64,000 nucleotides of DNA from a virus (taxonomy: Duplodnaviria; Heunggongvirae; Uroviricota; Caudoviricetes). Made by a program: the position numbers and the translations under genes. Location of the stretch: positions 770 through 64,769 of IMG/VR virus record IMGVR_UViG_3300032213_002044. One strand, given 5' to 3'. The notes below the pieces were generated by a model. It had not been told where the DNA came from, made no database searches, and worked only from the letters and a program-made list of their open reading frames with translations. Shown here in pieces: positions 1,107-61,016 of the stretch; position 1 is the stretch's first letter, and each line of letters begins with the position of its first letter.

Positions 1107-2759
<1,653 letters not shown>

Positions 2760-10032: not shown

Positions 10033-10070
10033 GGAAATAAAAAACCCAGCCATAGAGATAGCCGGGTTAA
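10033..10070 (-). terminator. Rho-independent terminator for the minus-strand island
   Basis: On the minus strand: AACCCGGC-loop-GCTGGGTT then TTTTTTATTT, immediately downstream of the 10105 stop. Confidence 0.55.
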
Positions 10071-10104
10071 CGTATGAATCAAAAAAAATAAACAACAATA
10101 TCTT

Positions 10105-10443
10105 TTAGTCAAACCACTGTTTACGATTGGTTTTTATATTCTTAATGCCAGGGTCTGAGAGTTTAGGGTCTTCACCAATCTTTTCTGCTGCCTTACGGAT
10201 TCCTTCTGTCCATGCTGAATCCCCTACTGCCCCTATCTCTTTTGCTTTCTTTAATTGTTCTGTGGATAACTCACTACCTACTGTCTGAGACATGAATTGT
10301 TTGGTGTGATATGTACCCAACGGACGAGTGAATTGTTTTAAGTGTTCAGCCTTACGGTCTAAGTACTCCATAAACTCATTCTCTGGCAGTTTAAACAACT
10401 CCTCTTCTGATAACTCTATAAATTCTTTTTTGTTTCCGTCCAT
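10105..10443 (-). CDS. Hypothetical protein
   Basis: 112-aa ORF, minus strand. Confidence 0.5.
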   Translation of the reverse strand: MDGNKKEFIELSEEELFKLPENEFMEYLDRKAEHLKQFTRPLGTYHTKQFMSQTVGSELSTEQLKKAKEIGAVGDSAWTEGIRKAAEKIGEDPKLSDPGIKNIKTNRKQWFD

Positions 10444-10446
10444 ACT

Positions 10447-10752
10447 CTATGCGGTTTTAAATTCAAATGGGACCAAACCCATATCCATTAATTGTGCCTT
10501 AGCCTCTTTAGCCCCACCATTTATTGCTTTGATGGCAATCTGCTCTTCAATCCATAACTCAGCCTTAGCCGGCGTTACAAACTTCTTTACTCCTCCACTC
10601 TTAAGGGTTACTGAGACCATCTCCGGAAAGGAAGGGGATGGAGCTGATTCTACTTTATAGTTTCTGTATTTTTTCATTTTTTGTTTTTTAAAAGAAATAA
10701 GCGTTGTGAATACGATAGATAGGAGCGTGGTATCTCTCACCCACTCTATCAT
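10447..10752 (-). CDS. Hypothetical protein (alternative internal start gives 10447-10677, MKKYRNYKV...)
   Basis: 101-aa ORF on the minus strand, co-directional with its neighbours. Confidence 0.45.
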   Translation of the reverse strand: MIEWVRDTTLLSIVFTTLISFKKQKMKKYRNYKVESAPSPSFPEMVSVTLKSGGVKKFVTPAKAELWIEEQIAIKAINGGAKEAKAQLMDMGLVPFEFKTA

Positions 10753-10933
10753 TGTTTAGTGAACCACCTTGCACCATAGATACATAGGGGGAGGGAACAA
10801 CCTCCATAAGACAAGTTCCGTGATACTCATCTATGTGGACAAGTTTAGCTCTGAGGGTAGGAGAGAAGTTTTCTGATACCTCCGTACCTATCACTTCGTT
10901 TAGTTCTATTAATTTGCTATCGCTTCTATTCAT
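10688..10933 (-). CDS. Hypothetical protein
   Basis: 81-aa ORF, minus strand. Confidence 0.4.
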   Translation of the reverse strand: MNRSDSKLIELNEVIGTEVSENFSPTLRAKLVHIDEYHGTCLMEVVPSPYVSMVQGGSLNNDRVGERYHAPIYRIHNAYFF

Positions 10934-10994
10934 AGTGTATCGTTTATATATTAAAGGTACAGTAAAGGTTTGATATATCCAAGCCTTTTACGGA

Positions 10995-11240
10995 TTATTT
11001 TTTACTTATTTTTCCCAATATAGAGTAGATATACCCATCAATCTTCTCATCTTCCCTCATACGACGGTCTCCATAGAACAAACCTTCATTGAATACCCCA
11101 TCTACTATACTTGCATATGAGAACACATCAATTATCAAATCATCACTCACCTCTTTAAAGTTGTTTAGGATTAAGTGGTTCATAGTATATCGTTTTATTA
11201 TATAGTAAAGATAGGGCATAGGGCTGATACGACCAAGCAT
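10995..11240 (-). CDS. Hypothetical protein
   Basis: 81-aa ORF, minus strand. Confidence 0.4.
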   Translation of the reverse strand: MLGRISPMPYLYYIIKRYTMNHLILNNFKEVSDDLIIDVFSYASIVDGVFNEGLFYGDRRMREDEKIDGYIYSILGKISKK

Positions 11241-11408
11241 TTACCCACTTATTTTTAAACATATTTAGGGGGGTATATGTGGATAACTTTTTAAAAATAA
11301 ATCGGATTTTGCTTGACTTTGTGGACGGAAAGCCGTATCTTTATAGGGTGGTAGGGCGGGAATAGATAGAGAGACAGCCGGTCCCTAACTCGCTGAGAAC
11401 CAATACCT

Positions 11409-11487
11409 TATAACTCGTTGATACTGAGGGAGATTAATTTCAAATAAATTTGTATATCCCAATCATTATACCTATATTGTATAAGTA
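11409..11487 (+). promoter_or_regulatory. Extended promoter/leader repeat, partial copy A (TAACTCGTTGATACTGA ... ATGAGAG)
   Basis: Shares the TAACTC(G/A)TTGATACTCA core and the ATGAG start context with the copies at 11786, 17075, 27130, 29205 and 56208. Confidence 0.4.
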
Positions 11488-11793
11488 ATGAGAGATATAA
11501 ACCCTTTAACCCCTAACCCTATGAGAGTGAGCCCAGCTACTATGAGCCGTATTAAATCCCTAATGAACCTATGTGAAGTTGTCGAAGGTGGACCAGGTAT
11601 GAAACCTACTGAGTTCGAATCGTATTGTGAACTAGCCGGCATCCGAATCGAGCCATTGGTAGTATCCCCTACGAATCTAAACGAAGGTATCTACCACATC
11701 ACCCTACCTGATTATGGGTATAGATGTGCATACTCACTTAATGGTTCACCGATTGAGATAAGTGGTAACCCTCTGAGAGACAATGAGTTATAA
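11488..11793 (+). CDS. Hypothetical protein
   Basis: 101-aa ORF starting with the repeat-encoded ATGAGAG. Confidence 0.5.
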   Translation: MRDINPLTPNPMRVSPATMSRIKSLMNLCEVVEGGPGMKPTEFESYCELAGIRIEPLVVSPTNLNEGIYHITLPDYGYRCAYSLNGSPIEISGNPLRDNEL

Positions 11794-11892
11794 GTCGTTG
11801 ATACTCAAGCAAGTTTTTTAGACGGAAACAGAAAATAATTCGGTTAATGCTTGGATATGTCGTCCCTATTACCTATCTTTACTATATGAGAT
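11786..11892 (+). promoter_or_regulatory. Extended promoter/leader repeat, copy B
   Basis: AGTTATAAGTCGTTGATACTCAAG ... AAAATAATTCGGTTAATGCTTGGATATG ... TATCTTTACTATATGAG. Confidence 0.45.
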
Positions 11893-12021
11893 TGAGAAAG
11901 ATACAATTGATTTCCCTTATTACCTTCCTTATGTACACCGGCAATGAGTGTAGAATGAGGGTAACCCCTATTGAGATTGAGGAAGCCCCTCGTACTGAAT
12001 TCGTAAATAAACCTTCATAAT

Positions 12022-38972: not shown

Positions 38973-40099
38973 TGGTTAAAGCTTTATACATACACAATAA
39001 TGCTGATACTGAAATAAGAGATGGTGGGTTAGTATTCTATCTACCAATCGGATTTACTTCAACAACTGCATTTAACAAAAATGTAAAGTTAATAGAGGTT
39101 GGTAAATCTATGGACACATTCAATTATAACAATCCAACATATGTAAATAAATTAGTTTCTAAAATAGAATCACTATATGATTTTGATTCCGATTTAAGGT
39201 TTATAATAAATTTTGGCATAGAAGAAAGTATAGTTACAGATGATATTATAAATTTTTACAAAAAAATTCTACATAATAAACCTATACTTTATTTAACAAA
39301 TAATATAAATTATTTAGTAGAACCGAATTTTATTTTATATAATAACAACGAATGGGTTAATCAAAATTGTGATGTTCACTTTATAGATGCGTTAGATAGA
39401 ATTAAAAATGCTGATTTAGGTACAATAAAGAAAAAATTTATGTTTCTTAATAATCACTTCTCTCCTATTAGATTTGATATACTTAAATTAATTCATAAAA
39501 ATAATAAACAATCGGAAGGTAATATATCTTTTAATTTAATAGATTTTAATGAAGCACAATTCGGTATAGAATCGGAGGAATGGTTTTTAAAAGAATGTGA
39601 AGAGTATGGTATTAAATATCCTATGTACTATGATACCTATCCTGGATTATCTAAGATTAGTGAAGTAGAACAACAGAAAAAGAAAATATTAGATATAAAT
39701 CATATAGGCACTGTTCCAATGAATTATAGAATATATTTTGAATCCTTTTTTGAAATAATAACAGAAACTCACCATTTATTAAACGTGCCTTCAGGTGGTA
39801 CATATATTTCCGAAAAAATATATAAGGCTCTTAAATCAGGAAATCCATTTGTATATTATGGAAAAAAAGAAGTTAAGCAACAATTAGAAAAAAAAGGATT
39901 TACATTTAATTCCCCTATATATTTTTTTGGAGTTGGAGAAGAATTTATGAATCATTTAGAAACTATATTAAATAATGATATGGAGTGGTATAATGATGTG
40001 CAGAGAAGATATTTGAAAGAGTATATAAATAATGTTCATGAATATAGTAATCTACAACGGCTTCAAAGTAATATAATAGTAAAATACATATACTCATGA
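38972..40099 (+). CDS. Glycosyltransferase, GT10 alpha-1,3-fucosyltransferase-like
   Basis: C-terminal ETHHLLNVPSGGTYISEKIYKALKSGNPFVYYG resembles the FucT motif FENSxxxxYxTEK(I)xxA...P(I)YWG. Confidence 0.35.
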   Translation: MVKALYIHNNADTEIRDGGLVFYLPIGFTSTTAFNKNVKLIEVGKSMDTFNYNNPTYVNKLVSKIESLYDFDSDLRFIINFGIEESIVTDDIINFYKKILHNKPILYLTNNINYLVEPNFILYNNNEWVNQNCDVHFIDALDRIKNADLGTIKKKFMFLNNHFSPIRFDILKLIHKNNKQSEGNISFNLIDFNEAQFGIESEEWFLKECEEYGIKYPMYYDTYPGLSKISEVEQQKKKILDINHIGTVPMNYRIYFESFFEIITETHHLLNVPSGGTYISEKIYKALKSGNPFVYYGKKEVKQQLEKKGFTFNSPIYFFGVGEEFMNHLETILNNDMEWYNDVQRRYLKEYINNVHEYSNLQRLQSNIIVKYIYS

Positions 40100-40539
40100 T
40101 TTATTGGTTAACAGGTCAGCCAGGTGCAGGTAAAACAACCTTAGTAAAAATGTTATATACACATCTTCATTCTCTCCGCCCTACTATTGTAGATGGTGAT
40201 GATATAAGAGAGATATTTAACAATAAGGATTATTCGGAAGCAGGCCGTAGAAAGAATGTAGAATTGGCACAACATCTTTCTCACTTCATACATAATAAAG
40301 GAGGTCTTGCATTAGTATCATTAGTTTCCCCATATAAAGACCAAAGAGATTCTTTTAAACAATTAATAGGAGAAGATAACATCAAAGAAATATACGTTCA
40401 CACAACGGAGGAAAGAGGTAGAGAGGATTTCTTTGTAGAAGGATACCAACCACCGATTGAAAACTTTATAGATTGTGATACGACAGTTGATAACGAATTT
40501 CAATCCTATAGAAAATTATTACAAAAATTAGATTTATGA
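40096..40539 (+). CDS. cysC: Adenylylsulfate (APS) kinase
   Basis: P-loop WLTGQPGAGKTT, VDGDDIRE (cf. LDGDNVRH), and GRRKNVELAQHL...LVSLVSPYKDQR (cf. DRKENIRRVGEVA...AFISP..R). Confidence 0.75.
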   Translation: MIYWLTGQPGAGKTTLVKMLYTHLHSLRPTIVDGDDIREIFNNKDYSEAGRRKNVELAQHLSHFIHNKGGLALVSLVSPYKDQRDSFKQLIGEDNIKEIYVHTTEERGREDFFVEGYQPPIENFIDCDTTVDNEFQSYRKLLQKLDL

Positions 40540-40913
40540 AAAAATATGCAATGTACATTGGAAGATGGCAAAACTGGCACAAAGGGCATGAATGGTTAAT
40601 AAACCAACAATTAAACAAAGGAAAAAATGTTTGGGTAGCAATTAGAGATGTTCCACAGGATGAGAACAATCCAAAAACTGCTCATCAAGTTTTTTTAGAA
40701 TTAATTGAAGAACCGTTCTTTATTGAAAATAGTAATAAAATTTTAATCAGTATTATTCCTGATATTGAATCGGTTAATTATGGTAGAGGTGTAGGGTACG
40801 ATGTAATCTATCACGAGCCACCATCCGATGTAGCAGTAATTAGTGGAACTGCAATTAGAACAGGTCATATGACACCCGATGGAACTATAACATACGATAA
40901 AACCAAAGGATAG
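40536..40913 (+). CDS. Cytidylyl/adenylyl-transferase-like nucleotidyltransferase (HxGH motif)
   Basis: AMYIGRWQNWHKGHEWL matches the (T/H)xGH nucleotidyltransferase signature (cf. TagD GTFDLLHWGHIKLL). Confidence 0.45.
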   Translation: MKKYAMYIGRWQNWHKGHEWLINQQLNKGKNVWVAIRDVPQDENNPKTAHQVFLELIEEPFFIENSNKILISIIPDIESVNYGRGVGYDVIYHEPPSDVAVISGTAIRTGHMTPDGTITYDKTKG

Positions 40914-41533
40914 TGAACGGAAAAGAGAAACTAATATTATCATCGGATGCAATAATGATTGATGAATTGAAAGAGAAATATAAAAACAATTTTGTTATGC
41001 ACAAAGGTGAGAAATCTCTAATGGTTAAGTTAGCTGAAATTGCTACTAAAAACGGAGGAGATATTTTAGAACTGGGATTTGGAATGCATTTATCAGCGGA
41101 TGCCGTTCAATCTAATCCTAATGTTACATCTCATACAATCATAGAAGTTCATCCTGAGATTTATAAATATGCTTTAATATGGGCTAAAAATAAACCAAAT
41201 ACCGAAATAATATTAGGTGATTGGATTGATATACTACCTACATTAGATAAAAAATTTGATGGTGTTCTGCATGATACTCATCGTGATGAAAATATTCCTA
41301 AATTTTTAGATTATATAAAACCTAATTGTAAGAATGGGACAATAGTTTCATTCTTTTATTTTCCTATATTAGATAATCGGTTTAACTCATATAGACATGA
41401 ATTAGCTGAAAGTGAAACTGAATACTTACCATATAGTAAAAATAAATCGTTTAGATATAATTACGAATTGAAATATACTACATTTGACGGTGAATCATTT
41501 GTTAAGGATAAAAATATAAAAAATATTATATGA
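40913..41533 (+). CDS. Hypothetical protein; possibly a class I SAM-dependent methyltransferase
   Basis: GGDILELGFGM motif-I-like segment; weak. Confidence 0.3.
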   Translation: MNGKEKLILSSDAIMIDELKEKYKNNFVMHKGEKSLMVKLAEIATKNGGDILELGFGMHLSADAVQSNPNVTSHTIIEVHPEIYKYALIWAKNKPNTEIILGDWIDILPTLDKKFDGVLHDTHRDENIPKFLDYIKPNCKNGTIVSFFYFPILDNRFNSYRHELAESETEYLPYSKNKSFRYNYELKYTTFDGESFVKDKNIKNII

Positions 41534-41742
41534 TAGTAGAAAGAAAGAGACATATTGCTAAAACCATATCATATCGTATTGTAAGTACTTTAGTTGGATT
41601 CTTATTGATGTGGCTGATAAGTGGTTCAATTAAGATAGGAGCAGCGTTTGGAGTAGCAGAATTGATTTATAAACCCATTCAATATTATATCCACGAAAGA
41701 GTATGGTACAAATGGATAAAATACGGATTAAAAAATAAATAA
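41530..41742 (+). CDS. Small membrane protein
   Basis: 70 aa; two TM helices. Confidence 0.45.
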   Translation: MIVERKRHIAKTISYRIVSTLVGFLLMWLISGSIKIGAAFGVAELIYKPIQYYIHERVWYKWIKYGLKNK

Positions 41743-42311
41743 TGTTTTATAAATTTATTGAAAACTTTTTAAGTAAAGAAGAATGTGATTTTATCATTTC
41801 GTATGGAGAGGATAATGGATTGCAACAAATGAAATCATCTAAAATCCTAAACGGAAAAGTGATTGAAGCGGATATTGAATATAATGGTAATAAACGAATG
41901 GGTGGATATTTTGTAGATGATTTATTATTAGATTCTCGTATAAAAATTATATCGGATAAGATTTTATCAATTTCAAATGAGTTAAACCCGTTCAATGGAG
42001 TAACATATACATCTATCCCAAAGTACTCATTTAATCGTTATTCCGATGGGGATTTTTTAGAATGGCATGAGGATAAGCATGAAATAATAAATGGAGCAAC
42101 TATAACACTTATTATTCAATTAAATGATAATTATGAAGGAGGATTAGTTAAATACAATATAAATAAAGTAGAGTATTCAATACCAAAACAAATGGGAAGT
42201 GTGTTTATTTTTGATTCTAACATAACACATTCGGTTGATATAATAGAATCGGGTCTAAGATATTCATTGAATGTTTGGCCATCATCAATTAAAAAAGTTA
42301 GTTTAATATAA
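41742..42311 (+). CDS. 2OG-Fe(II) oxygenase, prolyl 4-hydroxylase-like (paralog A)
   Basis: YSDGDFLEWHEDK (HxD), downstream H (ITHSV) and RYSLNVW (RxS). Confidence 0.6.
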   Translation: MFYKFIENFLSKEECDFIISYGEDNGLQQMKSSKILNGKVIEADIEYNGNKRMGGYFVDDLLLDSRIKIISDKILSISNELNPFNGVTYTSIPKYSFNRYSDGDFLEWHEDKHEIINGATITLIIQLNDNYEGGLVKYNINKVEYSIPKQMGSVFIFDSNITHSVDIIESGLRYSLNVWPSSIKKVSLI

Positions 42312-42322
42312 ACAATAGTATC

Positions 42323-42889
42323 GTGTCTAATAATATAATCAAAACATTTGAAAACTTTATATCAACGGAAGAATGTGATTTTATTTTAAATAAATGTAAG
42401 GAAGAATTAACTTTAAAAGCTGCGGAAGTTTATGTTGCTAATTCTAATGATAGATATGATACAAAAATTAGAAAATCATCGATTGGTTGGATATCCGATT
42501 TGGGATTTTTAAATGAAAGATTGACAAGCAAATTAAGAGAAACTTTCAATATAAATGGAATGGAAGTTACAGGATTAGGAGATTTTCAATTTACTGAATA
42601 TAAAGAAGGTGATGAGTATAATTGGCACACCGATGGTGATAATACAATCTTTAGAGATAGATTTACATCAATCGTAATTCAGTTAAATGATGGTTATAAT
42701 GGAGGGGTTTTAGAAATTAAAAATATTAAAGGTGAATTAGTACCAATAGAAAATAAAATTGGTACACTATATATTTTTGATTCAAGACTACTTCATAGAG
42801 TAACACCGGTTGAAACGAATGTACGATATTCATTAGTAAATTGGATATCATTAGTTAAGACCGATTTAAAAAAACAAAATATAATATGA
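42323..42889 (+). CDS. 2OG-Fe(II) oxygenase, prolyl 4-hydroxylase-like (paralog B)
   Basis: EYNWHTDGD (HxD), LLHRV, RYSLVNW; same N-terminal (T/S)xEECDFI(I/L) as paralogs A and C. Confidence 0.6.
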   Translation: MSNNIIKTFENFISTEECDFILNKCKEELTLKAAEVYVANSNDRYDTKIRKSSIGWISDLGFLNERLTSKLRETFNINGMEVTGLGDFQFTEYKEGDEYNWHTDGDNTIFRDRFTSIVIQLNDGYNGGVLEIKNIKGELVPIENKIGTLYIFDSRLLHRVTPVETNVRYSLVNWISLVKTDLKKQNII

Positions 42890-44133
42890 AAAATGTAATT
42901 GTTATTGGAGGAGGAACTGCGGGTTGGTTGACTGCTTTATCCGTTAATAAATTTTGGAAAGATGCTTCCGTTACCTTAATTGAAAGTTCTAAGATAGGAA
43001 TTTTAGGTGCGGGTGAAGGTGGTACACCAAATTTCGGAGCATTCTTATCTCTATTAGGAATAAATCAAAATGATTTTTATAAGAGAACAGGGTGTACGAG
43101 TAAAATTGGATTAACTCTAACGAATTGGACAGGTGATGGCAAGAGTTCATCACATCTTTTTACAGGCCCTAAACCTAATGAGTTTAAGCAAAATTTTGCA
43201 TATCACTTTGATGCTAGAATGGTGGCGGAATATTTGAAAGAGATATCTTTATCTAGAGGTGTTAAATGGATTGATGGTGAAGTTGATAATGTAGGTAAGG
43301 AAGGAGATGATATCCATTCTGTTTCACTTAAGGATGGAACTGATATTAAAGATATAGATTTTATATTTGATTGCAGTGGATTTGCTAGAATTATCATAGG
43401 TAAAGTTCATAATGAAGAGTGGATTGATTATTCCAAATATCTTTTATTGAATAGAGCTATGGCATATTTTCTACCACAAGAAAATCAATATTCAATAGGA
43501 GATGTTACCCACACTAACATGATTTCAATGAATTCAGGATGGATGTGGCAGATACCATTACAACATAGATGGGGATGTGGATATACATTTAACTCAGAAT
43601 TTATTACCGTTGATGAAGCTAAAAAAGAGGTAGAAGATTATATTGGTAAAGAAATTACTATACAAAAAGTATTTGATTTTAAGCCTGGTACACATAAGAG
43701 GAGTTGGATAGGTAATAGTGTTGCAATTGGATTATCATATGGATTCATAGAACCATTGGAAGCTACTTCGTTGATGTCAACTATAATGCAATTAAGGAGA
43801 ATAATAAGTGCTAAATTCGATGTTTCTCTTAGAGATAGATTTAATGATACTTGCTCTAGTATCAATGAGCAAAATATGATGTTCGTTAGATATCATTATT
43901 TAGCCGAAAGGTTTGATACTCCTTTTTGGAAAGCATCATATGAAATGCCTATTCCTGAGAAGTTACAACTTATATTAGATGCGGATAATAATATAATCCC
44001 AAAAACAAATGCTGAATTACTGAAAATTTTTGATTTAAAAGAAGTGGATGAAATGGAATTAACTTTCTTTACTTATAATTATCAAATGATTTTTAAGAAA
44101 AATAAAAAAGTTTCAATAAAAGAATTAATATAA
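42886..44133 (+). CDS. Flavin-dependent halogenase family protein (tryptophan-halogenase-like)
   Basis: VIVIGGGTAGWLTA FAD motif (GxGxxG followed by W) and GWMWQIPL (WxWxIP), plus FIEPLEATS. Confidence 0.7.
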   Translation: MKNVIVIGGGTAGWLTALSVNKFWKDASVTLIESSKIGILGAGEGGTPNFGAFLSLLGINQNDFYKRTGCTSKIGLTLTNWTGDGKSSSHLFTGPKPNEFKQNFAYHFDARMVAEYLKEISLSRGVKWIDGEVDNVGKEGDDIHSVSLKDGTDIKDIDFIFDCSGFARIIIGKVHNEEWIDYSKYLLLNRAMAYFLPQENQYSIGDVTHTNMISMNSGWMWQIPLQHRWGCGYTFNSEFITVDEAKKEVEDYIGKEITIQKVFDFKPGTHKRSWIGNSVAIGLSYGFIEPLEATSLMSTIMQLRRIISAKFDVSLRDRFNDTCSSINEQNMMFVRYHYLAERFDTPFWKASYEMPIPEKLQLILDADNNIIPKTNAELLKIFDLKEVDEMELTFFTYNYQMIFKKNKKVSIKELI

Positions 44134-44134
44134 T

Positions 44135-44782
44135 ATGGAAAAAATTTATTTCGATGATGCCACTTTTATATGGAAAGGCAAATTAGATTTATCCATGTAT
44201 AAGGATATAATTTTAAGGGAAGCAAATGAAGTAATAGATTCTTTAAAAGAAGTAGTTCATACCGATGGATTTGGTTATAAAATAGAATGGACTAATGATA
44301 TAAATTTCAATGGGAACTTTTCTATACAAAATAAATTAGATGAGGTTTGTCAATATGGAATTGATGTATGTAAAGATATATACTTAGAGCAGTTTGGTAA
44401 AGAATTTAATAAAGTTAACACCGATGCATGGGTAAATGTTGTTCGTTCAAAAGAGCCGGTGCAAGAAAACTTCTATGATAAAAAACAAAAATACCATATT
44501 CATACAGAAATTAATAAGAAAACAAAATCATTTGTTCCCGATTATACATATGTTTATTATATACAGATGCCAGATACGATGGAAGGTGAGGATGGTGTTT
44601 TATATTTTAAAGGAAAGGATGATACAGAATATTGGATAAGACCTGAAGAAGATGATATAATAGTAATGGAAGGTTGGATGCCACACGCTCCAAACAATGC
44701 ACCTACCTCTACAATAGATAGAGTTGTATTAGCGGGAAATGTTGGATTTGATTTTATTAAAAAAGAAAAAAGTTTACTTTAA
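44135..44782 (+). CDS. Hypothetical protein
   Basis: 215-aa ORF inside the modification cluster. Confidence 0.5.
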   Translation: MEKIYFDDATFIWKGKLDLSMYKDIILREANEVIDSLKEVVHTDGFGYKIEWTNDINFNGNFSIQNKLDEVCQYGIDVCKDIYLEQFGKEFNKVNTDAWVNVVRSKEPVQENFYDKKQKYHIHTEINKKTKSFVPDYTYVYYIQMPDTMEGEDGVLYFKGKDDTEYWIRPEEDDIIVMEGWMPHAPNNAPTSTIDRVVLAGNVGFDFIKKEKSLL

Positions 44783-45507
44783 TGTTAATTGATAATAAAT
44801 TTGTTTATTTATCCTTACCTAGATGTGCATCAACTTCTTTTCATATCTCGTGTATTAGACATAATTTTGATGTAAAGCATGCCAATCCTAAGTTTGATAA
44901 ATCTTATAAAAATGATGAATTAATTAAATTAAGTAATATGGAATTGGTATATGATATAAATCATTTTCATGAGACAATTAATGAGTTAACAGAAACATTT
45001 GGTAGAGAATATGATATAATATCAGTTAAACGAAATAGATACGATAGATATATATCTTATTTTAATCATTGTATTGGAGAACTACAACGACATGACATTT
45101 TTATGATAGCGGATACATTATTAGAATTAAATGTAGATGATATTTTGTTTTATAAAAGTGAAGACCTAATAAGTAAAGAATCCAGACTTGATTTACTTAA
45201 CACATTTCTTAAAAGAATAGGTTATTTAAATTTTCATAAAAGATTAGAATCTTTATTATTACCATTGTTTTCACCCATGTCTGTTTACCACAATAATAAT
45301 TCTAACATAATTTGGTTTGATTTTACTAATTTAAAACATTTAGAAGAGTGGGTATCATTTAAAACAAGTAAACCTTTTAAGCTAGAAATGTTTGGTTCTA
45401 GTATTGATTATAAATCTAATATAATAAATGATGAATATTTTGTAAAAAAATATAATTCAATATATGATTACTATGATTTTTTTAAAAAACAAGATACCTT
45501 AATTTAA
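44782..45507 (+). CDS. Sulfotransferase-like protein (paralog 1)
   Basis: LSLPRCASTSFH PAPS 5'-phosphosulfate-binding-loop-like motif; paralog of the next gene. Confidence 0.35.
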   Translation: MLIDNKFVYLSLPRCASTSFHISCIRHNFDVKHANPKFDKSYKNDELIKLSNMELVYDINHFHETINELTETFGREYDIISVKRNRYDRYISYFNHCIGELQRHDIFMIADTLLELNVDDILFYKSEDLISKESRLDLLNTFLKRIGYLNFHKRLESLLLPLFSPMSVYHNNNSNIIWFDFTNLKHLEEWVSFKTSKPFKLEMFGSSIDYKSNIINDEYFVKKYNSIYDYYDFFKKQDTLI

Positions 45508-45508
45508 T

Positions 45509-46255
45509 ATGTTAATTGACAATAAATTTTTATATATTTCTCTACCTAGATGTGGCTCTACATCATTTCATTATTCATGTATCATAAATGGATTAGATGT
45601 AAAGAATTTAGATACTCGTGCTGACTATGAAAATTCTAAGATAGATTTTGGTTCTATAGATGAATCCAACATAATGAATTTTATAGAGCACGGTCATACA
45701 CCCTTAAGTGAACTACAGAATAAATTTGGATATGATTTACCTATAATAGCAACTAAAAGAGATAGGTATGAGAGATTCTATTCTTTATACAGGCATATTA
45801 TATATGATTTAGATAGAGTTGGTCTAACTAAATTATCTTCCGAAATTTGTAATCTAGATTTAAATGAATTATTCTTTTTCAATACAATGGATATTATATC
45901 AAAAAGAAAAAGATATGATTCTATTTATTCTTTTTTAATTAAATTAATACCTGAAATAAAGTATAATGAAAGTGATAGTTTTTATCAATATGTAATTAAC
46001 GTAATTGATATTTTATTAACACCTATTTCACACTGGCATAATCATGACAAAAATATTATTTGGTTTGATATAAATGAAACGAATAAGATGGAAGAATGGG
46101 TATCAAATATCACAAATATCGAATTTAAATTAAAACATGTAAATTCTAGTATGTTTATCCAACCTAAGTTGAAGTTGGATAGTGAATTTATAGAAAGATA
46201 TGATTCTGTATATGAATACTATGATTTTCCAAAGAGCAATAAATCACTATTATAA
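45509..46255 (+). CDS. Sulfotransferase-like protein (paralog 2)
   Basis: ISLPRCGSTSFH; RDRYERFYSLY region resembles the 3'-PB. Confidence 0.35.
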   Translation: MLIDNKFLYISLPRCGSTSFHYSCIINGLDVKNLDTRADYENSKIDFGSIDESNIMNFIEHGHTPLSELQNKFGYDLPIIATKRDRYERFYSLYRHIIYDLDRVGLTKLSSEICNLDLNELFFFNTMDIISKRKRYDSIYSFLIKLIPEIKYNESDSFYQYVINVIDILLTPISHWHNHDKNIIWFDINETNKMEEWVSNITNIEFKLKHVNSSMFIQPKLKLDSEFIERYDSVYEYYDFPKSNKSLL

Positions 46256-46548
46256 TGAATATACCAAACTATAGAGAAATATTTGAAGCATGGATAATTT
46301 CTAAAAATCCAACGGAAACGCAGAAATTGATGGCAAATGATAGGTTAGATATATGTAAGACTTGTGAGTATAGAAAGGAGATTTTTAAAGGTAATAAATG
46401 GTCTACTATATGCAAAAAATGTGGATGTCCATTGAGTAAAAAAGTATTTTCCCCGTTGTTTAATCCATGTCCAATGGAAAAATGGGAGGAAATTGATTCT
46501 AACTATATGCAGAAAGTACCCAAAAAATCAAAGAGTACTATAATATAA
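46255..46548 (+). CDS. Small Cys-rich protein (zinc-ribbon-like)
   Basis: CKTCEY...CKKCGCPL...NPCPME. Confidence 0.45.
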   Translation: MNIPNYREIFEAWIISKNPTETQKLMANDRLDICKTCEYRKEIFKGNKWSTICKKCGCPLSKKVFSPLFNPCPMEKWEEIDSNYMQKVPKKSKSTII

Positions 46549-46584: not shown

Positions 46585-48075
46585 ATGAAAGGAGTGATAA
46601 TTGGCAGTGATTTGTTGGAACACAACGGAGATGTCAAGTTTATAGAAATTAACACTAATACAACTATCTATAATAATGGAGCCGAACTGCTTGATTATGA
46701 TAGTTTATTTGATATGCTTACTTCCAATGGGATAACCGAATTCCATTTTATTTGGACAGAATACGATGCGTTTACACCTCTATACGAACCATATAAGTTT
46801 AGGGAAATCGTAGAACAAAGGTGTTCTGATAATAACATTTCATTCCATGCTTATGTTGTACCAATGGGTTCTATTACAATTCCTTATATAGAAGATTCCG
46901 CAACTAAGTTTATCTTACGACAATCATATGATACAACTGCTCTAATAGATGAAACATATTGTGCGGATAAGTTTGGATTTTTCGATTTAATGCATAGTTC
47001 AGAATATATTCCAAAAACATTTTTTGATACGGCTGAAATAAATTTTGATACATTAGATTCTGTAGATTACAGTAGTAGTTTACATCCTAATATTTTAATA
47101 AAAGCTAGATATCCACAATATGATAAAGTTTCGTATCCAGAAATTCAGATTATTAGTAATAATTCTGAATTAGATAATATAAAGAGTAATCTTCCTACTA
47201 ACTATTTGGCACAGGAATTTATATATTCTGAGGATAATTTAGTTGAAGATAGATATTCTGTAATTAGAAGTATAGATATATTGTATGGTCCCAATTTAGA
47301 TGTAATAAATATGGGAGGGTATAGACAATCTACTATTTTACCAATTTCAACATTTGAGAATGAATTTAAAAGTGGTTCTACAATATTAGACCAAAAAAGT
47401 AGATACAAATATATCACAAAAATGATAGATGATGTAAAACATGAATATCATACAGATGAAGATTCTTTAATTGTAGATTATACTGGTTCACTACAAAGAG
47501 CCGATGCTATACAATTAGGTACTTATATTCGTTCAATTGATTTTGTTGATTTCAATGGTAATCATGCAGCTAACTTCGAAGAAGGAAAATTAGATGTATT
47601 AGGATGGGAAAGTACATTACAACAATCCAAAGATACGTTAGCTCAAACTACCTCTAGTTTAAATAATATTGTATCTGCATCGGTTGATACTATGTTTATT
47701 AGAGTTACATTGACAGATGGTAGAAGCTGGATAGATTCACCTGCGTGTACATACTATATAGAGGAATCTGGTTCATTAGCAACTAGATTTGAAATATTAA
47801 ATAAAATGTATGTAGGAGACAAAATAGTAATCACAAATGCGGAAACTTCTGAATTAACTACATTAGAAATCGCAGGATTAGAAATGGAACACACAAAAAT
47901 GACGGTATATGCTTTGGATTTTGAACCATCCGACCTTTTCTTAGTTGATTTAGGAGCGGGTAATTTTGGAGTAATGCACAACCCCTGTTGGTGTCCATGG
48001 AGTTATTGTGGAAATTGGTGCTTTAGTAGCTATTGCAGCCAATGTGGTGGTGGTCGTCCACCTGCGAAAGTTTAA
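46585..48075 (+). CDS. Large protein of unknown function with Cys/Trp-rich C-terminal tail
   Basis: C-terminal HNPCWCPWSYCGNWCFSSYCSQCGGGRPPAKV: 7 Cys, 3 Trp, 2 Tyr, 4 Pro in the last 32 aa. Confidence 0.55.
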   Translation: MKGVIIGSDLLEHNGDVKFIEINTNTTIYNNGAELLDYDSLFDMLTSNGITEFHFIWTEYDAFTPLYEPYKFREIVEQRCSDNNISFHAYVVPMGSITIPYIEDSATKFILRQSYDTTALIDETYCADKFGFFDLMHSSEYIPKTFFDTAEINFDTLDSVDYSSSLHPNILIKARYPQYDKVSYPEIQIISNNSELDNIKSNLPTNYLAQEFIYSEDNLVEDRYSVIRSIDILYGPNLDVINMGGYRQSTILPISTFENEFKSGSTILDQKSRYKYITKMIDDVKHEYHTDEDSLIVDYTGSLQRADAIQLGTYIRSIDFVDFNGNHAANFEEGKLDVLGWESTLQQSKDTLAQTTSSLNNIVSASVDTMFIRVTLTDGRSWIDSPACTYYIEESGSLATRFEILNKMYVGDKIVITNAETSELTTLEIAGLEMEHTKMTVYALDFEPSDLFLVDLGAGNFGVMHNPCWCPWSYCGNWCFSSYCSQCGGGRPPAKV

Positions 48076-48248
48076 ACTAAAAATTAAATACAAAAATAAA
48101 TAAAATGTTTAAAGTAAATAAAATAGAAAGACCTCAAACGGTCATTAAAGTTTTAGTTAAACCAATTTCGGTTGAACTTAAAACTAAAATATCATCTGCC
48201 GTTCAATCATTTGTAAATAGAGTTAAGGATAAACATTTGAGTTAATAT

Positions 48249-48767
48249 ATGTTAACACAATCAATCCTATTCACTAAAGAAGAATGTGATTATATCATTG
48301 GATTAAAAAATAAATATCCACAACAAGGTGATAATGGTAGATGGGAAGAATTTGATAACTTCATATACAAATTTCATACTCTGGAACATTTATCTGATGT
48401 AGATTGGGTAATCAAACGATTATGTGATTTTTTTGAATCCCAAATGGATTTGCATATTTTCGTAAGACCAACTAAACTTAATTTACACCATTATACGGAA
48501 GGAGATGAATTTGGTAAACATATAGATACTGGTACTCCTATAAAAGAATGGAATGTTGGTATTCTGTTAAACGAAGATTTTGATGGTGGTGATTATTTAG
48601 TGTTCAATAAAAATGATGAACCTATTGTAATTGATAAAAAGATAGGTAATGTGTGTATATATCAATCACAAACTCCACATCAAGTTACTCCGATAACAAA
48701 AGGAGAAAGATGGGCGGTGGCTATGTTCATACATAAATTTAGAATGAATCCTAATACACTTTTATGA
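48249..48767 (+). CDS. 2OG-Fe(II) oxygenase, prolyl 4-hydroxylase-like (paralog C)
   Basis: EFGKHIDTG (HxD), TPHQV, RWAVAMF; N-terminal TKEECDYII. Confidence 0.6.
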   Translation: MLTQSILFTKEECDYIIGLKNKYPQQGDNGRWEEFDNFIYKFHTLEHLSDVDWVIKRLCDFFESQMDLHIFVRPTKLNLHHYTEGDEFGKHIDTGTPIKEWNVGILLNEDFDGGDYLVFNKNDEPIVIDKKIGNVCIYQSQTPHQVTPITKGERWAVAMFIHKFRMNPNTLL

Positions 48768-49405
48768 AAATATTAATATTAGGTACACCTAGAAGTGGTT
48801 CAACTTCATTGGTTAGATTAGTAGATTCTCAAATGAATCTTTTTAATTATAGAATGTTTATCGAACCATTCAATCAACTTCTAGATGAAGAGATTACTTC
48901 AATAACACCTTTATTAGAATACGATAACATTTTAGTTAAGAATTTATTTTTAATAGGCAATGATGAATATCCAAAAGATTCATTTATGGATTTTTTTGAA
49001 TATTTAAATTGGTGTTATTCTTATTTTGATAAAATAATTATATTAGATAGAAAGGATAAACTTGCTCAATCGGAAAGTTTTGCTGTAAATGAAACATCTA
49101 TGCGAGAAAAAGGTATCGGATGGCATACACCTAAGATTTATGATGTTGATAAAATAGAACCATCTTATATCAAAACAATGATTGATAGATATACCAAATC
49201 AAGTGAAATCCTACATAATATATCATACAAACAAAAGTTTCCTATATTCTACTATGAAGATATATTCTTAGAAAAAAGTAGAAAACATATTGAAGAATTA
49301 TTTAGTTATTTAGATATGGAGGTGGATGAATCTAATTATATGGAATGGATATTATCGCCTGATAGAAGAGTTAGAATTAATAAAAACAAACAAAGTTTAA
49401 TATAA
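48764..49405 (+). CDS. Sulfotransferase (Stf0-like)
   Basis: ILILGTPRSGSTSL matches the PRSGST 5'-PSB motif. Confidence 0.5.
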   Translation: MKILILGTPRSGSTSLVRLVDSQMNLFNYRMFIEPFNQLLDEEITSITPLLEYDNILVKNLFLIGNDEYPKDSFMDFFEYLNWCYSYFDKIIILDRKDKLAQSESFAVNETSMREKGIGWHTPKIYDVDKIEPSYIKTMIDRYTKSSEILHNISYKQKFPIFYYEDIFLEKSRKHIEELFSYLDMEVDESNYMEWILSPDRRVRINKNKQSLI

Positions 49406-51008: not shown

Positions 51009-51040
51009 TTTGGATATATCGATTATTTTTCGTATCTTTG
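51009..51040 (+). promoter_or_regulatory. Bacteroidetes-type promoter (TTTG-N20-TATCTTTG)
   Basis: ATTTATTTGG ... TTTTTCGTATCTTTG. Confidence 0.45.
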
Positions 51041-52618
51041 AAGACTAATAAAATTATAATGTCAGATAAGAAATATTTTTACGAAAAGTGTGATTATTTT
51101 AACGAACCTCATATTAACTTAAAATATGAAGATGTACTTAAAATGACACTTACCGAATTCGAAGAGTGGGTTACTATGTTCCGTAAGACCGTAGTTGATG
51201 AGTGGAACAAAACAGGAGCACCTCCACGCATTGGTTCTTCGGAGGCTGAGATTATAGACCAATTCTCTAAACTACAAACCTATAAGGTTGATAAATTTGA
51301 AGAGAAAGATGATGATGGAAATGATGTTATTTTTAACTTCAATAAATTTGCTACTCCGGTAAATCAATTCTTTCCCGCGATGTATAAGACGGGGATTGGT
51401 GGTTCTTCTTATGATAAACCAAAACCATCTATCTACGATATATTTTGTAATGATGAATTTCTTCCTGAATTTGCAAAACAAATGAGGAGATTGACACGAC
51501 AAGATGCTATGTATCGTTTCTCTAAAACATTAGCTAAAGATAATAAAGAACATCATAATTCACATCTTACTACAGGTAAAGAATGGATTGAAAAATGGAT
51601 GAATGGAAATGTGTGGGAAGGGCATGATTTTTGCTTAGCACAAACTGATAGTAGAATTGAATCTTTACCAATTACTGCTGAAGAGGTAAAAGAATTGTAC
51701 AAAGCAGGTGTGATTCAGTATAAACATATATCATCACTTAAAACTGCTAATTGGGGAGAAGATATTGATTCATTAACTGAATTGGAAAAACAACCTATTC
51801 AATTAAAGTGGTATCCTTTGGGTCAAACTATTTTTCCTGAAGCAACTGCGGCATTTAGAATTGGAATGGGTACACAAGCAGCTGTAAACTTTCCTCCACT
51901 AACTGCAAAGTATTTGTATCAGAAATATACAAACCATATTAAAGACCAAAAACAAATTAATATCTATGACCCATCTTCTGGCTGGGGAGGTAGAATATTA
52001 GGTGCGTTATCGGTTGATGATAGAAACATTCACTACATAGGTAATGACCCAAATACAGAGAATTATATTCCTGAAATTGGTAAGAGTAGATATGAATATT
52101 TAGCAGAGTTCTTTAATAGTAAAATACCTGGAGCATGTAATCCATTTTGGGGACACAAAAACACATATGAGATTTACAGAACGGGCTCAGAGATTATTAG
52201 TGAGCAAGAAGGATTCCAAAAGTATAAAGGTAATTTAGATTTTATATTTACTTCACCTCCTTACTTTGATAGAGAAAGATATTCCGATGATGAAACACAA
52301 TCATTTAAGAAATTTGGTAACTACGAAAGTTGGAGAGATGGATTTTTACGACCTACTTTGGTAACCGCATTTGAGTATTTACGAAATGATAGATATATAT
52401 TATGGAACATTGCTGATATTAAGATAGGAAAAAGTTTCTATCCATTAGAACAGGATTCAATTGATATACTAACCGAATTAGGAATGGAGTATCAAGGTAA
52501 AATCCGAATGACGATGTCTCCAATGACGGGAGTTGATTTAAGTGGTGTTAAAAATAGTATGAAGATAGGTGGTCAGTTCTACAAATATGAACCGATATTT
52601 ATATTCTACAAAAAATAA
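51038..52618 (+). CDS. Putative SAM-dependent amino-methyltransferase (N6-A/N4-C type, SPPY motif) with a large N-terminal extension
   Basis: Motif I-like IYDPSSGWGGR followed by motif IV FIFTSPPYF; paralog of 59802-61016. Confidence 0.45.
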   Translation: MKTNKIIMSDKKYFYEKCDYFNEPHINLKYEDVLKMTLTEFEEWVTMFRKTVVDEWNKTGAPPRIGSSEAEIIDQFSKLQTYKVDKFEEKDDDGNDVIFNFNKFATPVNQFFPAMYKTGIGGSSYDKPKPSIYDIFCNDEFLPEFAKQMRRLTRQDAMYRFSKTLAKDNKEHHNSHLTTGKEWIEKWMNGNVWEGHDFCLAQTDSRIESLPITAEEVKELYKAGVIQYKHISSLKTANWGEDIDSLTELEKQPIQLKWYPLGQTIFPEATAAFRIGMGTQAAVNFPPLTAKYLYQKYTNHIKDQKQINIYDPSSGWGGRILGALSVDDRNIHYIGNDPNTENYIPEIGKSRYEYLAEFFNSKIPGACNPFWGHKNTYEIYRTGSEIISEQEGFQKYKGNLDFIFTSPPYFDRERYSDDETQSFKKFGNYESWRDGFLRPTLVTAFEYLRNDRYILWNIADIKIGKSFYPLEQDSIDILTELGMEYQGKIRMTMSPMTGVDLSGVKNSMKIGGQFYKYEPIFIFYKK

Positions 52619-52620
52619 TT

Positions 52621-52999
52621 GGGGGTGCCTGGTTTTGACAGGTACGATGAGTTAGTACGTTGATGCAAGCAGGGTTAGATGGAAATCCTTAAATACCTAT
52701 CGAACAATAAACGACGTAGAATTATCTACAATGACCTTCGAAGATGCAATGGCATTCGTTGGTGCTGATTACGCTGTAGCAGCCTAATCTCTCCCGCACA
52801 CATCGTGGGATATAAAATAGAATGTGTACCAAGGTGGAAAAGTGATTGAACCCGAAATCGAATCACCTATTGTTTATCGGTTGCCGATGGTGAAGAACCA
52901 ACCGAATATTTTGTTTGTTAAGAAAAACAAACTAAGCTTGTGAATGAGGTTTATTAAATCCGTATTTGGACGAGGGTTCGACTCCCTCCACCTCCACCA
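52621..52999 (+). ncRNA. ssrA: tmRNA (SsrA), phage-encoded
   Basis: 5' GGGGGUG pairs with 3' CACCUCC-A-CCA including a G3:U wobble; T-arm GGTTCGACTCCC; tag reading frame ...GADYAVAA followed by TAA. Confidence 0.85.
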
Positions 53000-59801: not shown

Positions 59802-61016
59802 ATGATAAAAGAATATTTTAAAAAGTTTTATGGAATGACTCCCTATCTTCGAATAGAGAAAGATGAGTGGAAGCATATCATAAACACATATACAAAAGAG
59901 GAGATTGTAGATGAACTTTCCGAAGTGCTACATTCCTATCCACCACCGATACCTAGAATTACCGAAGAGGATACAATTGATGCTTATAAGAAATTAAAAG
60001 GTACCTGGTGGCCTGATATCTTAGTTGAGGGTAAATGGTTTCCTCGTAACGAAAGGCAATCTACATATCCCCTAACATACGATGGTAGTAATTACTATTT
60101 TAAACGTACTAATGTAGGTAATAATGCTTCGAATCCTTTCCATATCGAAAATCGTTGGAAGGTTGATTGGGTTAGAACTCCTTCGGGATGGAAAACATGG
60201 CAAACGGTAGATGGTATTAAAACGATTGTAAGAGCATATTTTACTTTGGATAAGATGTTATTAGATGTAACGGAAGAAACCCTTAGAACTGCCACTACAT
60301 TACGAAAATATGTAGCATCTCAATTTAAACCCGTCATAGCAAAGGCATTTTACGATAGATTTAAGAGTGAGAATGTATTAGATTTTTCTGCGGGGTGGGG
60401 TGATAGAATGTGTGGATTCTTTGCAGGTGAAACTACTAAATTTTATTTAGGTATTGACCCAAATAGTAATAACCATCCTAACTACCAAAAACAGATTGAG
60501 TTCTATAAGAAACACCAAACGTTTTTTGAGAGTGATAAAGAGGTTGAGATGTTAGATATGGCAGCCGAAGATGTGGATTATTCCAAATACACAGATTTCT
60601 TTGATACTATCTTCACTTCCCCTCCATATTTCAACACAGAGAGGTATAGCTTCGATGAAACCCAAAGTTGGATACGTTATAAGAAGTTTGATGATTGGAA
60701 CAAAGGATTCCTCCAAAATACCCTAGAAAAGGTTATTCCTACTCTTAAAAAAGGTGGAATTATGGCAATCAATATAGCGGATGTATTTTCGGCTCCTGAT
60801 AAGGGGTATGTAGATATAACCAATTCTATGAACGATTTCCTCCATTCTAAGGGGTTAACTTATAAAGGGTGTATTGGTATGGAAATGACAAAAAGACACA
60901 ACAGCGGAGGTGCTGGGAGGGCCATATCGGATTATTTCTCAGAGGAACTAAGGGATAAGGTAGAAGAGGCTAAAAATCAAGCATTTGGAGAACCAATTTG
61001 GATATGGGAAAAATAA
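59802..61016 (+). CDS. Putative SAM-dependent amino-methyltransferase (SPPY motif), paralog of 51038
   Basis: VLDFSAGWGDR (motif I-like) then IFTSPPYFNTERYSFDETQSW, nearly identical to the 51038 block. Confidence 0.45.
   Translation: MIKEYFKKFYGMTPYLRIEKDEWKHIINTYTKEEIVDELSEVLHSYPPPIPRITEEDTIDAYKKLKGTWWPDILVEGKWFPRNERQSTYPLTYDGSNYYFKRTNVGNNASNPFHIENRWKVDWVRTPSGWKTWQTVDGIKTIVRAYFTLDKMLLDVTEETLRTATTLRKYVASQFKPVIAKAFYDRFKSENVLDFSAGWGDRMCGFFAGETTKFYLGIDPNSNNHPNYQKQIEFYKKHQTFFESDKEVEMLDMAAEDVDYSKYTDFFDTIFTSPPYFNTERYSFDETQSWIRYKKFDDWNKGFLQNTLEKVIPTLKKGGIMAINIADVFSAPDKGYVDITNSMNDFLHSKGLTYKGCIGMEMTKRHNSGGAGRAISDYFSEELRDKVEEAKNQAFGEPIWIWEK

Follow-up and report, generated by a model that had tools for sequence, protein, structure and literature searches.

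Flavin-dependent halogenase genes are common in marine phages. To our knowledge, VirX1 is the sole phage halogenase that has been characterized, and we know of no phage halogenase to which a natural substrate or role has been assigned. Tryptophans in ribosomal peptides, and even in folded proteins, are substrates of some flavin-dependent halogenases, MibH (PDB 5uao) being a lanthipeptide tryptophan halogenase. The flavin halogenase SrpI acts on a tryptophan of a long, structured proteusin precursor (PMC10858898), and the flavin halogenase ChlH acts on both internal and terminal tryptophans (bioRxiv 10.1101/2025.01.12.632611). VirX1 of cyanophage Syn10 has been characterized in structure and enzymology (PMC8407142; PDB 6qgm), and a review counted halogenase-like genes in 20 of 153 cyanophages (PMC10452541). 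We find halogenase homologues in 83 catalogued phage records, among them T4-like cyanophages, Pelagibacter phage HTVC008M, Campylobacter phages, and others; a viral flavin-dependent halogenase is, as such, already known. Here, we describe a 64,000-nucleotide stretch of viral DNA (the window, corresponding to positions 770 to 64,769 of IMG/VR record IMGVR_UViG_3300032213_002044; all coordinates are those of the window), in which the open reading frame (ORF) at 42886-44133 had been proposed, in an earlier reading made without database searches (the sequence-only reading), to encode a flavin-dependent halogenase in a phage genome. We examine this gene together with a downstream gene for a 496-amino acid (aa) protein, whose cysteine- and tryptophan-rich tail is a candidate substrate.

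Results

A short-form halogenase gene and its active site

The halogenase gene and its diagnostic sites are:

42886-44133 (+): short-form flavin-dependent (Trp-type) halogenase, 415 aa; assigned from Pfam, PHROG, PDB, AlphaFold2 (AF2)/Foldseek, and hhalign
42907-42927 (+): GGGTAGW, the GxGxxG flavin adenine dinucleotide (FAD)-binding motif, residues 8-14; motif position
43102-43104 (+): codon of K73, which aligns with the catalytic Lys79 of PrnA and RebH in phmmer, hmmsearch, and hhalign
43153-43161 (+): H90-L-F92, equivalent to the indole-stacking H101-L-F103 of PrnA; hhalign
43537-43560 (+): GWMWQIPL, the WxWxIP motif, residues 218-225; motif position
43759-43761 (+): codon of E292 in FIEPLEATS, equivalent to PrnA E346 and RebH E357; HMMER and hhalign

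The ORF starts with ATG, is open throughout, and codes for a 415-aa product, and stops are abundant on the opposite strand. Its match to Pfam PF04820 (Trp_halogenase; E = 2.2e-91, 307.4 bits, with a cut-off of 21) is far beyond chance and outscores that of any other FAD family by ~280 bits; Pyr_redox_2 and DAO reach at most 25 bits, and only along the N-terminal dinucleotide-binding stretch. A non-halogenating FAD monooxygenase profile, which the sequence-only reading had allowed might fit better, does not do so. Searches of NCBIfam gave only partial matches (CmlS, monooxygenases), far under their cut-offs. The phage family of the protein is PHROG 2928 ('tryptophan halogenase'; 8.4e-93), and its sequence matches in the PDB are BrvH, RebH, VirX1, BorH, PyrH, and PrnA (1e-54 to 3e-59), with the Pseudoalteromonas halogenase BrvH the best single match (3e-59) and VirX1 at 5e-57.

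Both motifs reported in the sequence-only reading, GGGTAGW near the N-terminus and GWMWQIPL in mid-protein, are found, and the catalytic Lys and Glu that it had proposed looking for are both present. We compared 44 unique halogenases, with identity down to 32%, from HTVC008M, P-SSM2, and a set of related loci (the 80 closest of 387 matches, with distant contexts added locus by locus). K73 and E292 are each invariant in 44 of 44, as are G8, G10, E44, H90, H107, W219, E289, T294, F394, and the GxGE loop; W14 is kept in all but one (43/44). At the position of F92 there is a Phe in 38 of the 44 and a Leu, Met, or Val in the rest, and the second Trp of WxWxIP is replaced by Phe in 19 of the 44, with the window protein having the full motif. 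The match to PrnA (a sequence identical to that of PDB 2apg) has an hhalign E value of 2e-50, and T294 and S295 align with the halide-site backbone residues T348 and G349 of PrnA by both HMMER and hhalign.

An AF2 model built with 29 homologues has a mean predicted local distance difference test score (pLDDT) of 84.8 and a predicted template modeling (TM) score of 0.85; the low-confidence parts are two cofactor-lining segments, 37-43 and 286-293 (pLDDT <50), and the last eight residues. The structural check suggested by the sequence-only reading gave a halogenase fold: the top 50 Foldseek matches in the PDB are all flavin-dependent halogenases (E ~1e-31 to 1e-33). The nearest solved structures by fold and by sequence alike belong to this enzyme class. 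On the query, the TM scores of the Foldseek matches are 0.76-0.83, and on the target they are 0.62-0.70; PyrH, PrnA, RebH, and MibH are among these matches, the lanthipeptide halogenase MibH at 0.82. We conclude that ORF 42886-44133 very probably codes for an active flavin-dependent halogenase.

The enzyme is short, and the expectation of a reduced substrate-binding C-terminal module proved correct. Relative to PrnA it lacks ~44 residues, the gap lying opposite PrnA ~108-152, a few residues after the His/Phe pair, and the hhalign alignment ends at residue 351 of the query and 409 of PrnA, leaving 64 residues in the window protein and 129 in PrnA. The best local match of this remainder to PrnA (NYQMIF against NYYCIF) is no better than those of shuffled sequences (366/500). 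In PrnA, residues Y443, Y444, E450, F454, W455, and N459 bind the amino-acid part of free tryptophan, and no equivalents of these six can be aligned in the C-terminus of the window enzyme. The substrate site is probably open, because both the ~44 residues and most of the C-terminal Trp-enclosing module are missing; and because the catalytic and indole-stacking pairs are kept but the amino acid-binding residues are not found, we infer that the substrate is of indole type and is presented in that open site. Every halogenase linked to the 496-aa family is similarly short (400-417 aa), and longer forms occur in HTVC008M (464 aa) and P-SSM2 (485 aa) as annotated (454-485 aa as called in our 44-sequence comparison) and among the solved enzymes (511-550 aa).

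Halogenase presence co-varies with a tryptophan in the tail of a co-encoded protein

The most productive lead in the sequence-only reading was its pointer to the C-terminal peptide of the product of the gene starting at 46585, both for the conservation of this tail and for the co-variation of its Trp with the halogenase. The relevant features are:

46585-48075 (+): 496-aa protein of an unannotated family, candidate substrate or precursor; no library match, Cys/Trp-rich tail
47983-48072 (+): tail PCWCPWSYCGNWCFSSYCSQCGGGRPPAKV, residues 467-496, candidate Trp halogenation site (W469, W472); conservation and co-variation

The C-terminus of the protein reads ...YALDFEPSDLFLVDLGAGNFGVMHN-PCWCPWSYCGNWCFSSYCSQCGGGRPPAKV, and a tail motif, HN-x-C-[WY]-C-[PST]-W-x-x-C-G-x-[WYF]-C-x3-C-x2-C, is kept in every close homologue, the window version being HN-x-CWCPW-x-x-CG-x-x-C. 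In the window, the Trp-containing tail is encoded 2.4 kb downstream of the halogenase; a halogenase gene precedes the 496-aa family gene by 1.7-3.1 kb in 62 of the 65 viral loci that have at least 4 kb of upstream DNA, and the family gene is found in all loci with a halogenase and enough downstream DNA. The arrangement extends to loci L108 and L121, where the partner protein is only ~42% identical and the gene order is (2-oxoglutarate-Fe(II) [2OG] oxygenase), a halogenase of 407-408 aa, a ~205-aa 2OG-like gene, a 95-aa Zn-ribbon gene, the family gene, and a 45-aa ORF.

After dereplication by tail, the halogenase is present in 45 cases with a tail Trp and in none without, and absent in three cases with a Trp and four with no Trp or no tail (Fisher P = 1.3e-4, uncorrected for shared ancestry, the 45 being largely one clade); Trp was counted within the first eight tail residues, and 'no tail' was pooled with 'no Trp'. 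One syntenic pair, L121 and L119, differs in precisely these respects. L121 and L122 have the tail VCTGCSWSACGNYWC (CTGCSW) and a halogenase, and L119 and L120, which have the same upstream genes (Endonuclease_NS, a ~745-aa gene, and a 133-aa gene), have the tail ECFGCDYADCGTFPC (CFGCDY) and lack both the halogenase and the ~205-aa gene. In L123 (tail IDCSGCNPFGTTCGNFNC, no Trp), the APS-kinase, nucleotidyltransferase, and DUF2061 genes run straight into the Zn-ribbon ORF and the family gene, and the entire oxygenase/halogenase block is missing. In L117 (tail PCTYCGYYTYPCGNYWC, with Tyr at the position of the window's Trp), neither the 4.5 kb upstream nor the 10 kb downstream has a halogenase, and the tail-less members in L111, L113, and L115 are also without one. 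Beside the HTVC008M and P-SSM2 halogenases, there is no 496-aa family member or Cys-rich ORF within 8-9 kb, and the Cys-rich windows there are off-frame noise.

The 496-aa family and its interchangeable ends

The 496-aa protein has 528 close homologues, all annotated as 'hypothetical,' and an exhaustive profile search gives 317 family representatives at 50% clustering; there is no match to the family in Pfam, the PDB, PHROGs, PADLOC, or catalogued phage genomes. An N-terminal domain of ~460 aa closes with H465-N466, a His-Asn junction of the kind that ends Hint and intein-like autoprocessing domains. Among members at 21-43% identity, D9, E21, N23, D104, R112, D116, D122, K173, R228, D450, and N466 are invariant and H465 is nearly so; the residue after N466 is Ser, Thr, Ala, Gly, Pro, or Asn, followed in the close clade by an invariant Cys. 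Because this residue set is invariant at such low identity, the N-terminal domain looks catalytic and the terminal Asn looks functional, at least as judged from residue conservation; no invariant N-terminal Cys or Ser nucleophile was found in the family.

What follows the HN dipeptide varies among relatives. Besides a Cys/aromatic-rich tail by itself, one type of end is a Cys/aromatic-rich segment plus a single Hint domain (P0242, P0243, P0248, P0250, P0252), a second has two tandem Hint domains directly after HN and no Cys-rich segment (P0368, P0369, P0373, P0376), and a third has long Cys-rich tails closing in a Peptidase_S74-like module (P0273, P0277); P0290 has nothing after HN. In P0368 and P0376, a canonical Hint domain begins right after HN. 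A Pfam scan of 20 members gave Hint families in ten, all within their extra C-terminal domains, and weak Peptidase_S74 matches in two, and the precomputed annotation of the family loci includes PT-HINT. The window protein itself has no Pfam match, to Hint or any other family, even at E values up to 10.

We considered an ATP-grasp fold for the N-terminal domain; alignment to Escherichia coli RimK by hhalign gives a probability of 0.1% and two of 20 members have weak RimK matches, so the assignment was rejected and kept only as a lead. As a separate observation, the invariant D9/E21/N23 resemble the Mg-ligand motif of ATP-grasp enzymes but are located at the N-terminus.

The loci of tail-less, double-Hint members (L109:3753-4139, and L113/L114) carry a SET-domain protein and several 2OG oxygenases, and no halogenase. 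The SET domain is of the protein lysine methyltransferase type. These neighbors hint at cassettes whose protein-modifying enzymes are suited to the C-terminus of the partner.

A hypervariable cassette of co-directional genes

The halogenase and the 496-aa protein gene are members of a cassette in which the genes are co-directional, with abutting or overlapping start and stop codons. The other genes are:

40096-40539 (+): APS-kinase-like P-loop kinase, 147 aa; Pfam
40536-40913 (+): HIGH-type nucleotidyltransferase-like ORF, 125 aa; NCBIfam nucleotidyltransferase matches
40913-41533 (+): methyltransferase-like ORF; library matches
41530-41742 (+): DUF2061 membrane protein; Pfam
41742-42311 (+): 2OG oxygenase; Pfam PF13640, 3.5e-11
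42323-42889 (+): 2OG oxygenase (P4H/PKHD-like); PF13640, 8e-14, and NCBIfam Fe2+-dependent dioxygenase, 1.7e-12
44135-44782 (+): 215-aa 2OG oxygenase-like protein; Pfam 2OG-FeII_Oxy_3, 4e-4 (weak), and PADLOC 2OG, 3.2e-6
44782-46255 (+): two paralogous ORFs, 241 and 248 aa, starting MLIDNKF.Y.SLPRC.STSF; conserved in the close clade
46255-46548 (+): 97-aa Cys-rich Zn-ribbon-like protein; PHROG 13558, 2.5e-8, and weak DUF6171 and Zn-ribbon matches
48105-48245 (+): 46-aa ORF; synteny
48249-48767 (+): third clear 2OG oxygenase; Pfam PF13640, 2.2e-11
48764-49405 (+): 213-aa ORF with a weakly sulfotransferase-like N-terminus; Sulfotransfer_3, 0.0032, and Sulfotransfer_1, 0.0062, both sub-threshold
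starting at 49405 (+): RmlC; Pfam
starting at 49949 (+): ADI-like ORF; Pfam

The stop codon of the oxygenase gene at 42323 overlaps the halogenase start by 4 nt. The gene at 44135 has counterparts (205-217 aa) directly after the halogenase in nearly all loci, including distant ones, and a Zn-ribbon-like ORF (81-102 aa) is directly upstream of the 496-aa family gene in most loci, down to 22-40% identity. Over the same range of identity, every locus examined has a small ORF (32-49 aa) as the next gene after the family gene. The upstream block from 40096 to 41742 is conserved by synteny in L002, L004, L100, and L123.

The sequence-only reading had described the neighbors as oxygenases and sulfotransferases. 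The oxygenases stand, with four 2OG ORFs at or near threshold, but the sulfotransferases are not supported at family thresholds: the paralogs at 44782 and 45509 have no match in Pfam, NCBIfam, PHROGs, or the PDB, and the sub-threshold Pfam matches of ORF 48764 find no support in NCBIfam or the PDB. No flavin reductase domain was found among the 20 neighboring ORFs scanned, and defense-system profiles (PADLOC) match nothing in the cassette but a generic 2OG model. Separately, the products of the ORFs at 40096 and 40536 match two halves of phrog_10255 'kinase' (positions 2-93 and 133-226), and they may form an enzyme that is split or made in two parts, perhaps a pair for sulfate activation of the 3′-phosphoadenosine 5′-phosphosulfate (PAPS) type.

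Compared with the 293-kb contig L002, the genes flanking the cassette are 91-99% identical at the protein level, whereas the cassette, from the 2OG oxygenase gene to the 46-aa ORF, is only 42-67% identical; because of this difference, we describe the cassette as a hypervariable module within an otherwise conserved genome. Its divergence fits a module under diversifying pressure. Some close relatives have a more divergent halogenase (40-49% identity, 400-414 aa) at the same position, as in the L002/L007 comparison, which suggests module swapping.

The window derives from an uncultured large-phage lineage

That the window is part of a phage genome, as the sequence-only reading had it, is supported by syntenic IMG/VR viral contigs with halogenases up to 93% identical. 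IMG/VR has 28 viral contigs, the longest 164 kb, with close relatives of the halogenase (59-93% identity), and the IMG/VR contigs bearing the 496-aa partner gene reach 333 kb; JGI and NCBI contigs that measure 141 and 293 kb are also syntenic with the window. The window codes for a phage-type GroEL, PhoH, an endonuclease, an HNH protein, and DNA methylase-like proteins, with nearly all genes on one strand and a positive GC skew. We identified no phage structural genes within the window; in L004, a protein with a Peptidase_S74 tail-fiber chaperone domain is encoded 9 kb downstream.

A megablast search with the 30-55 kb part of the window gave no match among 50,697 phage genomes, and by tblastn the window PhoH is at most 31% identical to any catalogued phage PhoH and the GroEL relatives are distant or cell-like. 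Because of the lack of a DNA match in this collection and the low PhoH identity, we assign the window to an uncultured large-phage lineage. The best catalogued phage homologue of the halogenase is that of Pelagibacter phage HTVC008M, at 36% identity.

Other features of the window

A full-length transfer-messenger RNA (tmRNA) gene is located at 52621-52999 (+), directly after ORF 51038-52618, and appears to be phage-borne; it matches Rfam RF00023 over model positions 1-374 of 374 (101 bits, E = 2e-38). The tag peptide predicted by ARAGORN is DVELSTMTFEDAMAFVGADYAVAA, the end of which differs from the usual ...ALAA. The GroEL-type chaperonin gene is at 1122-2759 (+); its product matches PHROG 5725 (1e-176) and is ~62% identical to cellular-type GroEL sequences in the phage collection. 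ORFs 51038-52618 and 59802-61016 (both +) share matches to PHROG 12517 and to DNA methyltransferases, and look like paralogous methylase-like genes ~7 kb apart. The stretch from 10001 to 12000, which coincides with a few minus-strand ORFs (10105-10752), is the sole part with negative GC and AT skew, both being strongly positive in the rest of the window, and might represent a switch of transcription or a small module in inverted orientation.

Discussion

The proposed substrate and what weighs against it

We propose that the halogenase naturally acts on the tail of the co-encoded 496-aa protein, at W469, W472, or both, a proposal that, reading genomic context and conservation together, we consider finely balanced or just short of it. 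As in the PrnA/RebH family, FADH2, O2, and a halide would react to form hypohalous acid (HOX) at the flavin, the HOX would be guided to K73 and E292, and an indole ring held against H90 and F92 would undergo electrophilic halogenation; context points to W469 and/or W472 as the indole in question. The reduced FAD would be supplied by an unlinked flavin reductase of the host, which we propose because no flavin reductase was seen among the neighbors; two-component halogenases mostly rely on an unlinked reductase (PMC12615548). The 2OG oxygenases would act on the same tail as further tailoring enzymes; the halogenase would belong to a set of several such enzymes, all dispensable, in the hypervariable phage cassette.

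Several observations weigh against this proposal. Three close-clade tail types (L038, L069, L100) have lost the halogenase although they keep the Trp motif and the remaining cassette genes; because it has dropped out of these loci with the cassette retained, the halogenase behaves as a dispensable tailoring gene. The co-variation leans on one large clade and a few distant loci, two with the halogenase and four to six without. By profile score, the enzyme is closer to PrnA (E = 7e-70; PrnA, PyrH, and RebH together 1e-65 to 1e-70) than to the peptide halogenase MibH (1e-45), and the Glu and His/Phe pair that are typical of enzymes for free Trp are retained. The halogenases of cyanophages and pelagiphages occur without the 496-aa family, so the enzyme family, taken overall, acts on other substrates. 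Genes of sugar or small-molecule type are found nearby, RmlC and the ADI-like ORF in the window and carbamoyltransferase and GT25 genes in L004. The six invariant Cys residues of the tail could bind a metal and bury the tail, and the structure model of the 496-aa protein, built with 30 close homologues, has a pLDDT of only 47.7.

For the cassette as a whole, a further reading, which we consider rather less likely than not, is a phage system for the post-translational tailoring of a protein. The tail Trp would be halogenated, with hydroxylation by the 2OG oxygenases, and self-cleavage of the Hint or Peptidase_S74 type would, in some relatives, expose the tail module or set it free. The product might be a heavily modified, disulfide- or metal-knotted peptide resembling the peptides that are made on the ribosome and modified after translation (RiPPs), or a modified virion or effector tip.

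Alternative roles

A different role, in a small-molecule pathway yielding a halogenated metabolite derived from an amino acid or a sugar, or in the decoration of a host surface polysaccharide, has been proposed for cyanophage clusters of halogenase, 2OG, DSBH, carbamoyltransferase, and methylase genes (PMC7824862). On that account the 496-aa protein would be unrelated or would be a pathway enzyme such as an ATP-grasp-like ligase, and its catalytic-looking invariant D9/E21/N23/K173/R228 and the few weak RimK/GSP-synthetase matches are in keeping with this. So are the APS-kinase-like, nucleotidyltransferase-like, methyltransferase-like, RmlC, and ADI-like ORFs of the window cassette, the carbamoyltransferase, GT25, and epimerase genes just upstream in L004, and the pairing of a 2OG oxygenase with the halogenase in HTVC008M and the nearby 2OG gene in P-SSM2, both without the 496-aa family. 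However, the carbamoyltransferase and sugar genes lie outside the conserved core, neither the window cassette nor L108 or L121 having them; the missing Trp-enclosing module speaks against free tryptophan as the substrate; and the co-variation of the halogenase with the tail Trp, including its absence from L119 and L123, is left unexplained. We regard a small-molecule or polysaccharide role as unlikely, if still a serious contender. The same co-variation weighs against a broad-scope, open-site halogenase of free indoles or aromatics in the manner of VirX1 and BrvH, acting as a stand-alone auxiliary gene on host metabolites, which we think distinctly improbable. Its attraction is that the indole halogenase BrvH is the best single PDB match (3e-59) and the viral enzyme VirX1 scores 5e-57, that VirX1 accepts a wide range of substrates in a large, accessible site (PMC8407142), and that an open site is predicted from the truncations in the window enzyme; but a stand-alone gene sits poorly with tight embedding in a conserved co-directional cassette with overlapping or abutting codons, and an analogy with VirX1 and BrvH, enzymes whose own natural substrates are unknown, tells us little about the biology.

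A protein that no longer halogenates, whether a flavin monooxygenase or a non-catalytic binding or scaffold derivative, might be suspected from the strong truncation, from the lack of a flavin reductase gene nearby, and from the Phe that takes the place of the second WxWxIP Trp in 19 of the 44 relatives. The window protein has the full WxWxIP motif, though, an unlinked reductase is the usual arrangement for two-component halogenases, and invariance of K73, E292, GxGxxG, and the GxGE loop across all 44 is hard to explain without catalysis; we consider loss of activity very improbable indeed. Returning to halogenation of the tail Trp, if true it would make this viral halogenase the first with an assigned natural substrate and the 496-aa protein the first phage protein known to be halogenated, and it would mean that phages halogenate, and probably hydroxylate, their own proteins or peptides. 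It would also provide a compact 400-417-aa peptide or protein Trp halogenase for biocatalysis and open to study a large unannotated family whose self-cleaving ends are interchangeable (one Hint, two Hints, S74-like, or none). The co-varying neighbor of the short clade makes the role of phage halogenases a two-gene question; should halogenase and tail turn out not to be linked, the gene would be another copy, in a phage, of an enzyme family already known.

Comparison with known systems

In the literature searched, we found no description of a phage cassette combining halogenase, Hint, and Cys-rich components; what is new here, relative to that literature, is the short 400-417-aa clade, its fixed association with the 496-aa family, and the co-variation with the tail Trp. 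With PrnA, RebH, PyrH, and Thal, the window enzyme shares its fold (TM ~0.8), 25-28% identity, the motifs, the Lys and Glu, T294, and the His/Phe pair; unlike them, it is ~100-120 residues shorter, its C-terminus cannot be aligned with their Trp-binding module, and it is encoded in a phage cassette rather than in an antibiotic pathway. VirX1 is likewise viral and a member of PF04820 (phmmer E = 5e-57, ~31% identity by tblastn to the Syn10 genome), and the natural substrate of neither enzyme is known; however, VirX1, from a T4-like cyanophage, is a 531-aa protein of full-length architecture, and the iodide preference that it shows (PMC8407142) is not transferable to the window enzyme.

Among phage gene clusters, that of S-SSM6a and P-SSM2 similarly combines a halogenase with several 2OG oxygenases and methyltransferase- and sugar-type enzymes and is polymorphic between related phages (PMC7824862), but its halogenase is longer (485 aa in P-SSM2), it has no 496-aa family member within 9 kb, and its core of carbamoyltransferases, HemK-like methylase, and HAD phosphatases is not that of the window cassette. 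In HTVC008M, gp078 and gp079 form an overlapping pair of 2OG oxygenase and halogenase genes resembling that in the window, with 36% identity over 84% of the query; there, the halogenase has 464 aa, its gene is situated between those for the small and the large terminase, and no Zn-ribbon or 496-aa gene is nearby. With respect to MibH, SrpI, and ChlH, the window enzyme has no specific sequence kinship to MibH, its setting is viral, and its candidate substrate falls outside the recognized RiPP precursor classes; if the proposed substrate is correct, it would nonetheless resemble all three in acting on a Trp in a ribosomal product encoded nearby.

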